Positions 5,001-56,347 of a stretch of 64,000 bases of DNA are shown here, piece by piece. Origin of the DNA: an uncultured Saprospiraceae bacterium (GTDB lineage Bacteria > Bacteroidota > Bacteroidia > Chitinophagales > Saprospiraceae); NCBI GenBank assembly GCA_964589365.1, contig CAZPTQ010000002.1, positions 4,746 to 68,745 of the forward strand, given 5' to 3'. A program made the position numbers and the translations under genes. Position 1 is the stretch's first letter. Each line of letters starts with the position of its first letter. The notes below the pieces were generated by a model. It had not been told where the DNA came from and did no database searches. It saw nothing but the letters and a program-made list of their open reading frames with translations.

Positions 5001-5297
5001 TCACTTTTGATTTTTCATTGCCTTCCCCTCTTTTGGCATCATCTTGTCAAATGGATTGCCCTTCCATTTATTGTCGTCTGAAGAGCGCTTATAGTCTTTA
5101 TCAAGTAGTTGACAGCCCCAACGGCTATTATCCCAATGATACACCAGGCCAGGATATTGCCCATATAAAGTATTGCATTCCAGACATTTTTGGTCGCCAT
5201 GCTCCTCGAAACCTGCATTTCGGAGGAGATTTTGAGCCTTGGAAGAATAGGCGGCATAAATAAAAAGCAGACCAAGAAAGTAAGGGTAGCTGTTCAT
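5001..5297 (-). CDS. small secreted hypothetical protein, possibly an N-terminal fragment of a larger family
   Basis: ORF 5001..5327 trimmed to the ATG at 5297 (MNSYPYFLGLLFIYAAYSSKAQ signal peptide). The NLLRNAGFEEHG motif resembles the N-terminus of ORF 58285..58866 (YFRNPSFEGAPG). Confidence 0.45.
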   Translation of the reverse strand: MNSYPYFLGLLFIYAAYSSKAQNLLRNAGFEEHGDQKCLECNTLYGQYPGLVYHWDNSRWGCQLLDKDYKRSSDDNKWKGNPFDKMMPKEGKAMKNQK

Positions 5298-5496: not shown

Positions 5497-6429
5497 TCAT
5501 GCCGTATGATACTCGAAACTGATCTTGCCCCCCCATTTTTTGTCCGGCGCAAGACTCACCAAGCCTTGTTTGTTGTTGAACGCATCCACATTGCAGCTCA
5601 TCGGCTCCAGCGCGACGCTTTCGCGGTGAGGCGGAGTAAATACCTGGAAGAATGGAAATTGAGCAATGGGTGCTTTCATCGTAAGATACCGGCCATTTCC
5701 TTCGAGCATCAACGGGTAGCTCCCCCTGGTTTTGGAGCTTTGGAAACAGTTGTCCAAAATAGTGTCTTCGATAAAGCTGAGTTTTTGGAAATCCTTGAAC
5801 TGCGCCCGCCCGCCCGTTGGGATCATTCGCTTGTTAATGGTTATTTTTTCGCAAGGTGGTATCCGAAGCCCATGACCATTCGCCCCTTCCATGAGCCGAA
5901 AATAGGGGTGCCAGCCAAAGCCGAAAGGAATCAGGGAGTGATGCAAATTTTCAACTTCTACCTGCACTTCGAATTTGCCCGTATCGTGTATGGAAAACTC
6001 AATTTCGAGTGAAAAAGGGAATGGATAATGGGGCCGATCGCCCAAATAATCGAAGAAACACCGTATGCTCGCAAAGTTTTTTGCCAGAAAAACATACTCC
6101 ACTTCAAATGCTTCCGCTCGCACAAAACCATGTATCGCATTCCCCGTGGCAGCATTGTTGAGGGGAAATTGATATTCTTTGCCCAGCCATCTGTACTTAC
6201 CCTCGTCCAAGCGATTGGGAAACGGAAACAGGATGCTGCTTTTGCCCCATTTACCTGCCTCCAATTCTTGTGGGGTAGCATATCCGTCTAAAATGCTTTG
6301 GTTCGCAAACTGAATATCCAGCACATTTGCGCCCACGGCGGGCACTATGCTAAAACCGTTGCCTGTCAAGGGGTTGCGCAATTCATAGCACGTATTTTTG
6401 CCGAATGGGGTTTTGGTTAGTTCATACAT
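5497..6429 (-). CDS. aldose 1-epimerase (galactose mutarotase-like) family protein
   Basis: ORF 5497..6471; the probable start is the ATG at 6429 (MYELTKTPFG). Family pattern: ILFPFPNRL, NAIHGFV, FGFGWHPYF. Confidence 0.85.
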   Translation of the reverse strand: MYELTKTPFGKNTCYELRNPLTGNGFSIVPAVGANVLDIQFANQSILDGYATPQELEAGKWGKSSILFPFPNRLDEGKYRWLGKEYQFPLNNAATGNAIHGFVRAEAFEVEYVFLAKNFASIRCFFDYLGDRPHYPFPFSLEIEFSIHDTGKFEVQVEVENLHHSLIPFGFGWHPYFRLMEGANGHGLRIPPCEKITINKRMIPTGGRAQFKDFQKLSFIEDTILDNCFQSSKTRGSYPLMLEGNGRYLTMKAPIAQFPFFQVFTPPHRESVALEPMSCNVDAFNNKQGLVSLAPDKKWGGKISFEYHTA

Positions 6430-13583: not shown

Positions 13584-13659
13584 GGTGTCTTAGCTCAGCT
13601 GGTAGAGCAATGGACTGAAAATCCATGTGTCCCCGGTTCGATTCCGGGAGATACCACCA
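13584..13659 (+). tRNA. tRNA-Phe (GAA), CCA encoded
   Basis: Hand-folded cloverleaf. Acceptor GGTGTCT/AGATACC, D arm GCTC..GAGC, anticodon stem ATGGA/TCCAT with loop CTGAAAA, T arm CCCGG TTCGATT CCGGG, discriminator A, then CCA. Confidence 0.95.
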
Positions 13660-21562: not shown

Positions 21563-21688
21563 GGATGGGCTGGTAAAGGCGGGCGAAAAGTAAGGAATTT
21601 TGCAAGACGCTTCAACCCACTAATCAAACACCGGAAGCGAGGGATTGGATAAAAATTCCAAGCGATGGGTTTTTTCCGGCAGCACTTC

Positions 21689-22096
21689 TTAATTCTCTTG
21701 GTTTACAAAAAGAATTTTCTGCTGGTAGGTTTCCCAAAAGCCAGTCTCGAATGAATCTATTATCAGGTTTTTTATCTTTTCAACTACTTGATTCACAAGA
21801 TTTTCAGGCGCGATCTTCAAGTCCAGTTCAAAAGGTTTTTCATGCAAACAATCCGTATCAATTTGCACTACGAGGAAATCGTTTTGCTCAAATGCACCTT
21901 GGAAAAGCGAGGATTGGCAGTAAGCTATCACCTGCGTCCATCCTCCTTGTCGTTGGAAAGCATCCGTCGCGTCAAGGAGGGGTTGGAGTGGGCGAACCGT
22001 TAGATCGGGGTCATCGAAATGACCGACGAGGATGTTCTTCAGAACCCGATGGTCGGTTGGGCCTTCCGCAATAAGGCCGAAAGTTGGATTAGGCAT
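21689..22096 (-). CDS. 135-aa mini Toprim-like protein (E ... DxD pattern), partner of the upstream ATPase
   Basis: ORF 21689..22105 begins at a TTG in the track. The first ATG is at 22096 (MPNPTFGLIAEGPTDHRVLKNILVGHF), 5 nt after the ATPase stop. An acidic DxD motif (FLVVQIDTDC) lies about 70 aa downstream. This resembles the N-terminal EG..(D/E) and DxD pattern of DUF4276, DUF4435 and RloB Toprim partners. Confidence 0.7.
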   Translation of the reverse strand: MPNPTFGLIAEGPTDHRVLKNILVGHFDDPDLTVRPLQPLLDATDAFQRQGGWTQVIAYCQSSLFQGAFEQNDFLVVQIDTDCLHEKPFELDLKIAPENLVNQVVEKIKNLIIDSFETGFWETYQQKILFVNQEN

Positions 22097-22101
22097 AGTC
22101 T

Positions 22102-23211
22102 TCAAATGTTGGGTAGACCACCGATATAGCCCCGGAGAAACTGCTCAGACAGTTTCACGGACTCGTGGCCATTAGCAGATGGTTTTTGCTCAATTCGGAG
22201 GGCTTTGGTATGGCCGAGTTTATTACGAGAGATGACGAATAGGCGTTGTTCCTGATCATTTAGGTTGAGGCCATCAAGTAGACCGGGGTTATGTGCAGTA
22301 ACTATGACTTGCTTGTCATTTTCTTTTGCCAATCGTACTAATTCACCAATAAGTTTAGCGCAGAGCCGAGGATTCAGCGGATTGTCAATATTGTCAATAG
22401 CAAAGAACTTGGAGGTATGAGGGCTGACAAAAAGAGTAATATAAAAAAGCAAGTAGAGAAAGCCCTCATTGCTGCAGCGTTGGTCAATGTATGCGATGCC
22501 GTCTTCTAAGTAGCGATCCTTGATTTGTATGCGCCGCTCATTGAAAAGCAAATCATTGGGGATTTCAGAGCCTTCGAACCAGTCAATGAGTTGGAGGGTC
22601 TCACTGATTTTTTTGAACACCTCTGGCTCTTTGCGAACAAGGTCGGCAAAGTGACTGAACAATGCTTCGCCGCGTATGCCTAGTGGTCGAATTTGACCTT
22701 CTTCGTCGAAGCGACGGAGGTAGGTGTTTTCGGGAGCATAAAGTTGATATCTAGGGATATTCGTCTTATTTACTTTATTAACATAAAAATTTCTTCCTTT
22801 TTCAAGCGCGATTAAAAAGTCCTCTTTGCTTTCAGCCAATATAGTGTCTCTCTCCTTATCTGTATTCGTGTAGTTTGTATTTTTAAGAAACCAGTATTGA
22901 TCAGGGTCAAAAACATGAATAATATCGAGTGGGTACGTATCTGTTTCGTTTGAAAAAGTAATATTCATCTCCTTTTTAGCCTTTCCAAAACCTGAAAACA
23001 TTAAATCAGCATCAGTCAATCTGATGCCTTTCCAAGGCAAAAAGCCATCTCCAACCATTGTGTCGTCAATTACCAAACTCCCCAAGGCAATCGCTTCCAA
23101 AATATTCGTCTTTCCGAAACCATTCTCCCCAATCAAAACATTCACTCGCCCCAAGTCGATTTCGAGTGAGAGAATAGACTTGTAATTTTCAATTTTAATA
23201 TGCTGTATCAT
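22102..23211 (-). CDS. ABC/SMC-like AAA_21-type ATPase with non-canonical Walker B
   Basis: ORF 22102..23238 has a TTG start in the track; the ATG at 23211 gives MIQHIKIENYKSI. Walker A GENGFGKTN (23104-23130), signature-like CSNEGFLYLL, Walker B region KFFAIDNIDNPLNP (22369-22410), H-loop VIVTAHNPGLLD. Confidence 0.85.
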   Translation of the reverse strand: MIQHIKIENYKSILSLEIDLGRVNVLIGENGFGKTNILEAIALGSLVIDDTMVGDGFLPWKGIRLTDADLMFSGFGKAKKEMNITFSNETDTYPLDIIHVFDPDQYWFLKNTNYTNTDKERDTILAESKEDFLIALEKGRNFYVNKVNKTNIPRYQLYAPENTYLRRFDEEGQIRPLGIRGEALFSHFADLVRKEPEVFKKISETLQLIDWFEGSEIPNDLLFNERRIQIKDRYLEDGIAYIDQRCSNEGFLYLLFYITLFVSPHTSKFFAIDNIDNPLNPRLCAKLIGELVRLAKENDKQVIVTAHNPGLLDGLNLNDQEQRLFVISRNKLGHTKALRIEQKPSANGHESVKLSEQFLRGYIGGLPNI

Positions 23212-23226
23212 AATCCGTGTATTGGG

Positions 23227-23234
23227 CAAAAGTA
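23227..23234 (-). promoter_or_regulatory. TAnnTTTG -7 box immediately upstream of the ATPase gene
   Basis: The minus strand reads TACTTTTG, 15 nt before the ATG at 23211, in the 34-nt gap after the ABC exporter stop. Motif match only. Confidence 0.4.
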
Positions 23235-56275: not shown

Positions 56276-56276
56276 G

Positions 56277-56347
56277 AGGTTTCCAGCGGATTCGAACCGC
56301 TGTAGCAGCTTTTGCAGAGCTGTGCCTAACCGCTCGGCCAGGAAACC
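56277..56347 (-). tRNA. tRNA-Cys (GCA)
   Basis: The reverse complement folds by hand. Acceptor GGTTTCC/GGAAACC, anticodon stem CAGCT/AGCTG with loop CTGCAAA, T arm AGCGG TTCGAAT CCGCT, discriminator U. 71 nt; CCA not encoded. Confidence 0.93.

Follow-up and report, generated by a model that had tools for sequence, protein, structure and literature searches.

A probable decaying copy of the catalogued two-gene module PDC-M31 with a truncated partner gene in a Saprospiraceae contig

The PDC systems are 145 "phage defence candidates" that were found by guilt-by-embedding and defined via their embedding in BREX, DISARM or type I restriction-modification (RM) loci (bioRxiv 10.1101/2024.01.29.577857). 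AbiL of Lactococcus (AbiLi and AbiLii) is an abortive-infection pair shown experimentally. It represents an analogous combination of an ATPase and a Toprim protein, with AbiLii predicted to be Toprim/OLD-like and about 200 aa long (PMC13064643). Proteins of the DUF4276 family are named in the PARIS paper among the partners of AAA15/21 defence ATPases (PMC11464382), and both DUF4276 and RloB belong to the Toprim superfamily and carry the same Glu and DxD motifs (PMC12065111). Here, we describe a two-gene locus in a 64,000-nt stretch of contig CAZPTQ010000002.1 (the window, in whose coordinates all positions are given), in which an ATPase gene is followed by a small open reading frame (ORF) of 135 codons. 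An earlier note on this DNA had proposed that the pair is a compact, possibly undescribed type of ATPase-nuclease defence module. The two minus-strand ORFs, their coordinates and the 5-nt spacer between the ATPase stop and the small-ORF start (agact) were all confirmed in the sequence, and the earlier note was right at the family level, but the compact undescribed subtype is refuted. The locus is most probably a recently inactivated, decaying copy of a conserved candidate two-gene module, which is already catalogued in PADLOC as PDC-M31.

Checked against PADLOC, the pair matches this catalogued defence candidate, and hence the proposal of an undescribed type does not hold. The ATPase shows an end-to-end match to PDC-M31A (E 5.1e-67, 224.7 bits, residues 1-369 on profile positions 1-395), the partner and its homologues match best to PDC-M31B, and the two genes lie side by side in the same orientation. 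The window differs from PDC-M31 in its truncated B gene, so that PDC-M31B is not matched over its length: the small ORF covers only profile positions 3-85 of 241 (residues 5-84, E 9e-10), whereas the full-length homologues, for which PDC-M31B is the best match (E 1e-9 to 4e-15), reach up to positions 7-212 of 233. Since this match is modest, the family appears to be a divergent branch of PDC-M31. A second difference is that the pair lies outside BREX, DISARM or RM loci here and in most relatives. Within the literature library searched, no paper was found to mention PDC-M31 or to report an activity for it.

The 135-aa ORF is the stump of an ordinary gene for a protein of about 217 aa, left by a 181-nt frameshifting deletion. 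The intact arrangement is preserved in a syntenic locus of another Saprospiraceae metagenome-assembled genome (MAG; GCA_046160345.1, locus L001), which encodes the ATPase P0047 and the 217-aa partner P0002 in the same gene order as the window (Thioredoxin_7, hypothetical, ABC exporter, ATPase, P0002, DUF1015, Amidohydro_3, RNase H). The DNA of the two loci is ~79% identical and aligns without gaps from mid-ATPase to ~21708 (blastn and global alignment); then follows a single contiguous gap of 181 nt (60 codons plus 1 nt), after which homology resumes through the start of the DUF1015 gene. The gap was placed by single-gap global alignment and BLAST, as a MAFFT alignment of the DNA misplaced it, and CCTnTT-like microhomology at both edges makes the exact position of the junction ambiguous. 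Because the deletion is frameshifting, the original C-terminus is still readable, but in another frame, and this remnant is 69% identical to its L001 counterpart. A tblastn search of the window with P0002 placed residues 1-131 in frame -1 but residues 190-213 in frame -3, with residues 132-189 missing, and revealed no second intact partner copy in the window. The small ORF thus comprises 131 native codons and four out-of-frame codons (NQEN) before its stop; its product aligns to only the first ~131 residues of the homologues and ends in KILF-V-NQEN. In-frame read-through past the TAA stop would give FLSNPSLPVFD, resembling the C-terminal NPSL motif, and was considered as the remnant; this candidate was rejected, because both the DNA alignment and tblastn put the remnant in the other frame.

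The structural model of P0002 (predicted local distance difference test score, pLDDT, 91) indicates what has been lost. Residue E11 follows the strand at residues 6-9, D80-x-D82 stands at the end of the strand at 74-80, the fourth strand spans residues 128-133, and E138CWLLP starts the next helix. The window product breaks off inside this fourth strand (beta-4) and lacks ECWLLP, a motif invariant in 37 of 37 full-length homologues, together with all C-terminal helices. A search with the small ORF against 5.8 billion proteins (E <= 0.01) returned 42 sequences, namely the window protein itself, one fragment of 83 aa and 40 proteins of 214-234 aa.

These results bear directly on the possibility, suggested by the earlier note, that the 135-aa ORF encodes a working mini-Toprim effector of naturally compact size, which would make the pair a new compact ATPase-nuclease defence subtype. 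Residues E11 and D80-x-D82 are indeed kept and conserved, and the ORF is open, begins 5 nt past the ATPase stop and has the same sequence on many contigs. Its length, however, is accounted for base by base by the frameshifting deletion, with the out-of-frame C-terminus still readable, and the protein is left without ECWLLP and without some 85 residues at its C-terminus that belong to a single, confidently modelled fold. Nor do the short homologues form a natural length class. When the 135-aa sequence was searched against 1.84 billion representatives and the best 150 matches were taken, 122 were at least 200 aa long (mode 220-239 aa), 117 of these 122 carrying the ECW motif, and the 28 shorter matches were spread over 75 to 186 aa without a peak, which is the pattern to be expected of fragments at contig ends and of decayed copies here and there. 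With the constraint on the partner ATPase also relaxed (see below), we regard a functional compact effector as very improbable. For an unusually small partner, the lengths of its homologues and a syntenic relative should therefore be checked before a compact subtype is claimed.

The truncation could alternatively be a sequencing or assembly artefact that conceals a full-length gene. The window apparently derives from metagenome-type data, and a second Saprospiraceae relative has frameshifts in both genes that are possibly assembly errors. Against this, the deletion allele was found on 10 retrieved contigs (JGI, ENA and Logan assemblies) with 99.4-100% nucleotide identity over a 1.8-kb region. 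These contigs come from different samples and assemblers and differ by single-nucleotide polymorphisms (SNPs) elsewhere, and a clean 181-nt deletion with microhomology at its edges is atypical of homopolymer-type error. Its identical occurrence on 10 independent metagenome contigs indicates that the deletion is real, and an artefact can be regarded as next to impossible. In the second Saprospiraceae relative (L022:4311-6053, MAG GFS_12690, JAYSUY010000543.1), both genes of the pair are split over two frames, with breaks near 5063-5099 in the ATPase and near 5634-5637 in the partner; these splits could represent independent decay or assembly indel errors.

The ATPase gene retains an open frame, in which amino-acid changes are accumulating at a near-neutral rate in the population. 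Across the contigs it contains nine nonsynonymous and three synonymous SNPs (pN/pS 0.82), compared to four nonsynonymous and 17 synonymous SNPs in five pooled flanking genes (pN/pS about 0.07; Fisher p = 0.0028 for the contrast). Three of the changes affect invariant or nearly invariant residues, namely N308S in the H-loop, which is carried by six population contigs, P281H and Y241H. The window ATPase also has five private deviations at positions where 23 homologues agree (A46L, F155Y, G183A, S246C and P267S), whereas any other sequence of the alignment has zero to three. Over the longer term, the gene pair evolved like its neighbours: in the comparison with L001, in which synonymous sites are saturated (dS 1.3-1.8), dN/dS was 0.04 for the ATPase core, 0.09 for the small ORF and 0.03-0.10 for the flanking genes. 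Such low values indicate that purifying selection acted on the module through most of the period after the two lineages separated, and that constraint was lost only recently.

The same data could be explained if only the effector is dead and the ATPase is a working orphan, which would have changed because it has taken on a new role or, as an immune sensor, is under diversifying selection. Defence sensors are often under positive selection, the ATPase family has a hypervariable insert (residues 46-155), and the frame is intact on all 10 contigs without indels. However, none of the nine nonsynonymous SNPs falls in this insert; all of them are in the conserved core, where N308 and P281 (both invariant) and Y241 are replaced. 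The window allele also exceeds all other sequences in private deviations at columns that are otherwise invariant, and the finding of the two genes side by side in 79 of 80 loci speaks against the ATPase having a role of its own. A working orphan is thus improbable, and decay of the whole module after loss of the effector remains the preferred explanation.

The first gene encodes an SMC/Rad50-like ABC ATPase of the AAA_15/AAA_21 type, in agreement with the earlier note. It matches AAA_15 with 64.4 bits (cut-off 32.1) and AAA_21 with 62.7 bits (cut-off 27), both above the Pfam gathering cut-offs, and the Pfam match spans residues 23-313 (profile positions 1-304). In a Foldseek search, the AlphaFold model (pLDDT 73.5) had its best matches among PtuA, the retron Eco8 OLD nuclease, Thermus OLD and SMC/Rad50 heads (E ~1e-11, TM 0.45-0.55). 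From the motifs read in the protein (GENGFGKTN, SNEGF and TAHNP), Walker A, the signature-like SNEGF and the H-loop are conserved, with DQR..NEGF invariant in an alignment of 24 homologues. Residue F32 of Walker A is Cys or Ser in every homologue shown, and Cys also on four population contigs. The supposed Walker B region (AIDN) proved different from expectation. It includes a strand at residues 269-272 in the model, but the catalytic Glu of the ABC ATPase Walker B is replaced by an invariant Asn (N274) across all 24 aligned members, and its absence is a family-wide trait rather than a window-specific defect. As every member has Asp-Asn at this site, the protein may work as an ATP-binding switch with slow or absent hydrolysis, and the alignment suggests that the family binds ATP with little or no hydrolysis. 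The family also has LNP in place of the usual LHP. The last ~14 residues of the protein (LSEQFLRGYIGGLP, positions 22102-22143) are almost invariant family-wide, and this tail has low confidence in the model (pLDDT < 50 for residues 364-369); it could serve as a peptide on which the partner protein docks.

Aligned homologues of the ATPase range from 353 to 430 aa in length. The insert of the window protein is 51-54% identical to three metagenomic homologues (P0044-46) and only 16% identical (unalignable) to P0047 of L001, while the N- and C-terminal parts outside it are 83-89% identical to P0044-46 and P0047 alike, suggesting that the insert acts like a swappable cassette.

Judged by its profile matches, the partner family is a divergent relative of DUF4276, and the window copy a fragment of such a protein. 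Of 37 full-length homologues, 27 match DUF4276 at E <= 0.1 (best match 2.6e-7) and 15 match RloB, mostly below the Pfam cut-offs; P0002 reaches 21 bits against DUF4276 (PF14103), under the cut-off of 30.2, and five of the 42 proteins returned by the homologue search have a precomputed PF14103 assignment. The 135-aa ORF itself produced no match in Pfam (E <= 1), NCBIfam or PHROGs. Its motifs FGLIAEGPTDH and VVQIDTDC contain the retained acidic residues E11 (22064-22066) and D80-x-D82 (21851-21859). The earlier note had read these as the Glu and DxD signature of Toprim nucleases, and they are conserved among homologues (E11 in at least 90%, D80 and D82 invariant). As in the Toprim superfamily, the Glu follows strand beta-1 and the DxD follows strand beta-3. 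The full-length model has four strands alternating with helices. Its best structural match in BFVD is a phage RloB-like protein (TM 0.51, E 0.05). The proposed Toprim-like partner falls among the DUF4276/RloB-like proteins, assigned in the literature to the Toprim superfamily. In NCBI, P0002 (MFN0215781.1, L001:8001-8654) is named "phage tail protein", a name without backing from profile, structure or context.

Several other described systems resemble the pair in part, and the ATPase has weaker, mostly partial matches to AriA, HEC-01A, AbiLi, PtuA, Old and mad3. PARIS likewise combines an AAA_15/21 ABC ATPase with a separate Toprim-superfamily effector, and the AriA model matches the ATPase with E 6e-25. 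This match, however, is limited to ATPase residues 1-151, the Walker B of the family lacks the catalytic Glu, and neither the window ORF nor the full-length homologues match DUF4435/AriB; with no DUF4435 partner, the pair is not PARIS. The AbiLi models match over residues 1-322 of the ATPase (E 2e-21) and one partner homologue shows a faint AbiLii match (E 0.005), but the window protein has none, the similarity is marginal, and AbiL resides on plasmids in Firmicutes. With their Glu and DxD motifs, the partner proteins agree with the description of DUF4276/RloB effectors (PMC12065111); effectors of this type include Mad4 in MADS and, in Menshen, the C-terminal domains of NsnC. In contrast to these systems, the nearby genes include no methyltransferase and no further MADS or Menshen component, and mad3 is matched only in part (E 1e-14, residues 1-145) and mad4 not at all. 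The lack of a mad4 match and of a methyltransferase context excludes assignment to MADS. The ATPase model also superposes on PtuA (Septu, retron), the retron Eco8 OLD nuclease and Thermus OLD, with TM values of 0.46-0.55 for these three. Sequence matches to OLD-family proteins and PtuA are confined to ~45 residues around Walker A (residues 2-43 for the Old model), and the partner of PtuA is an HNH nuclease. OLD and GajA are fusions of an ATPase and a Toprim domain, whereas separate genes encode the two here and in 79 other loci; thus the pair is neither OLD nor Gabija.

A scan of 185,579 species genomes identified 354 loci encoding a relative. The best 80 of these 354 are distributed patchily over five phyla (Bacteroidota, Cyanobacteria, Armatimonadota, Acidobacteriota and Desulfobacterales). 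In 79 of the 80, the gene immediately upstream encodes an ATPase homologue in the same orientation, the exception being cut by a contig end, and the ATPase gene ends 3-31 nt ahead of the partner gene in all but three loci. The pair is therefore a tight unit with patchy distribution across phyla, and the predicted co-occurrence of the two genes is borne out. The site between the ABC exporter and DUF1015 genes is shared with the window by L001 only. Elsewhere, the pair adjoins an M28 peptidase gene in 23 loci of Microcoleus and related filamentous cyanobacteria, purA in six loci (four Arcicella and two Cytophagales MAGs), nadE in six Armatimonadota loci (Capsulimonadaceae and Armatimonadales) and ligA in three Saprospiraceae loci, and five Runella loci have a common downstream AAA gene. 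Within each lineage it occupies one fixed site amid housekeeping genes, which is unusual for a supposed mobile defence module. The immediate neighbours in 10 loci are LigA, NadE, PurA, MgsA, KaiC, an M28 peptidase and an AAA protein. Strong defence matches were few among 118 neighbour ORFs from 24 loci (type IIG RM, HEC-06, DrmMI and SoFic), with most of these ORFs belonging to core metabolism. Contrary to the expectation of a defence island, the pair is found outside such islands both here and in most other genomes.

This setting raises the question whether the intact family is anti-phage at all. It might instead be a lineage-fixed accessory nucleic-acid-processing pair, loosely like RecF/RecR, whose loss here would be that of a dispensable housekeeping-like function. 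The fixed lineage sites between housekeeping genes, the scarcity of defence genes among the 118 neighbour ORFs, the long-term dN/dS down at the level of core genes and the replacement of the Walker B catalytic Glu in every member are all in its favour. On the other hand, the family is patchy across phyla, with only 354 loci in the genomes scanned, and its best profile matches are all to defence ATPases or their partners (PDC-M31, AriA, HEC-01, AbiLi, PtuA and OLD). The definition of PDC candidates by embedding in BREX, DISARM or type I RM loci, the cassette-like hypervariable insert, typical of immune sensors, and the GC content below the genome average in the window and L001 also speak for defence. 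An accessory role of this kind seems rather unlikely. We give no higher standing to the broader notion that the intact family joins a hydrolysis-impaired ABC ATPase with a Toprim-like protein in a lineage-fixed pair, which has long been kept at single sites between core genes. If it were true, the window would show the natural death of such a lineage-fixed pair, the effector by a frameshifting deletion followed by neutral drift of the ATPase, and this order of loss would fit a toxin/antitoxin-like dependence between the two proteins.

For an inactivated copy of PDC-M31, the following mechanism can be proposed. In intact members, if PARIS, AbiL and OLD are taken as the analogy, the variable insert of the ATPase would detect a trigger, and the ATPase would hold or release the partner, which would act as a metal-dependent nuclease using E11, D80-x-D82 and probably E138. 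In this genome, the proposed course of events begins with the 181-nt deletion, which took the end of beta-4 and about 58 residues including ECWLLP and put the remaining C-terminal codons out of frame, leaving the 135-aa stump. With the effector presumably dead, the function of the ATPase would no longer be kept by selection, and the module would decay. Such an order, with the effector gene lost first, would be expected of an effector that is toxic in the absence of its ATPase, and this single case fits an effector that is harmful unless the ATPase restrains it. As a discovery, the locus has little weight, the type being a PADLOC candidate already and this copy being broken. Its remaining value lies in the family-level oddities and in a population snapshot of module loss; the ECWLLP motif of the partner, the Walker B without Glu, the cassette-like insert and the effector-first decay could be useful for work on PDC-M31.

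Several observations weigh against inactivation of a defence module. The defence function of PDC-M31 and the sensor and effector roles of its proteins are ascribed by analogy, and the related system HEC-01 gave no protection on testing. The neighbours in other genomes are mostly housekeeping genes, and hence the genomic context provides no support for defence. A Foldseek search of the PDB with the full-length partner model retrieved neither Toprim nor OLD or AriB structures, its best match (E 0.027) being TIR or flavodoxin-like, and the partner-family profile had only chance matches to CD226 among PDB sequences; the Toprim assignment therefore draws on motifs, weak Pfam matches and the literature. 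The truncated protein keeps E11 and DxD and may have residual activity, and positive selection acting on an immune sensor might in principle account for the excess of nonsynonymous changes in the ATPase. The SNPs form a small sample of 12 ATPase sites, and the population contigs were picked by exact identity of the 135-aa product, which makes variation within the small ORF invisible.

Table 1. Positions of the genes, motifs and deletion traces at the locus
Feature	Position in window	Strand	Details
ATPase gene	22102..23211	(-)	ATG at 23211, stop TGA 22102-22104, 369 aa
Small ORF	21689..22096	(-)	ATG at 22096, stop TAA 21689-21691, 135 aa
181-nt deletion junction	21708..21714	(-)	Missing: P0002 residues ~132-189; blastn, global alignment vs L001, tblastn
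Out-of-frame C-terminal remnant and original stop, KPRELRSAAGKNPSLGIFIQSLASGV	21624..21704	(-)	L001 counterpart CKPKGLRSAAAKNPSLGIFIQALPVKI, same stop
Walker A P-loop, G28-E-N-G-F-G-K-T35	23107..23130	(-)	G28, N30, G31, G33, K34 invariant, 24 homologues
Hypervariable ATPase insert, residues 46-155	22747..23076	(-)	GC 0.339; corresponds to the AT-rich stretch
Walker B strand, F269-F-A-I-D273-N274-I-D276	22384..22407	(-)	F270, A271, I272, D273, N274 invariant, 24 homologues
H-loop, T305-A-H307-N308-P309	22285..22299	(-)	T305, H307, N308, P309 invariant in family
TACTTTTG motif	23227..23234	(-)	15 nt upstream of ATPase ATG (read from sequence)

The TACTTTTG motif had been taken as a promoter box. 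Its position relative to the ATPase start was confirmed, and it agrees with the Bacteroidota -7 promoter consensus, TAnnTTTG. The pattern TANNTTTG is not enriched, with 42 occurrences in the window against 45.7 expected, and at this chance frequency the box by itself is no evidence for a promoter. Scans for sigma-70 promoters and terminators gave nothing useful. Just two RNA genes were detected in the window, tRNA-Phe(GAA) at 13584-13659 (+) and tRNA-Cys(GCA) at 56276-56347 (-), and the Rfam and tRNA scans had no match close to the gene pair; as both tRNA genes are far from the locus, they give no hint of a tRNA-associated integration site. The flanking genes were correctly recognized as an ABC exporter (ABC_tran, E 2e-33) and a DUF1015 gene (E 1.5e-50) by Pfam. 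The AT-richness of the pair, which had suggested horizontal acquisition, is real: GC is 0.37-0.38 across 22600-23200 and 0.484 window-wide, and the module is under the genome average in the window and likewise in L001. It is no signature of a recent acquisition of the island, however. The dip coincides with the hypervariable insert, where GC has its minimum (0.39-0.46 in the remaining module), and the pair occupies the same junction in L001 despite a synonymous divergence of 1.3-1.8.

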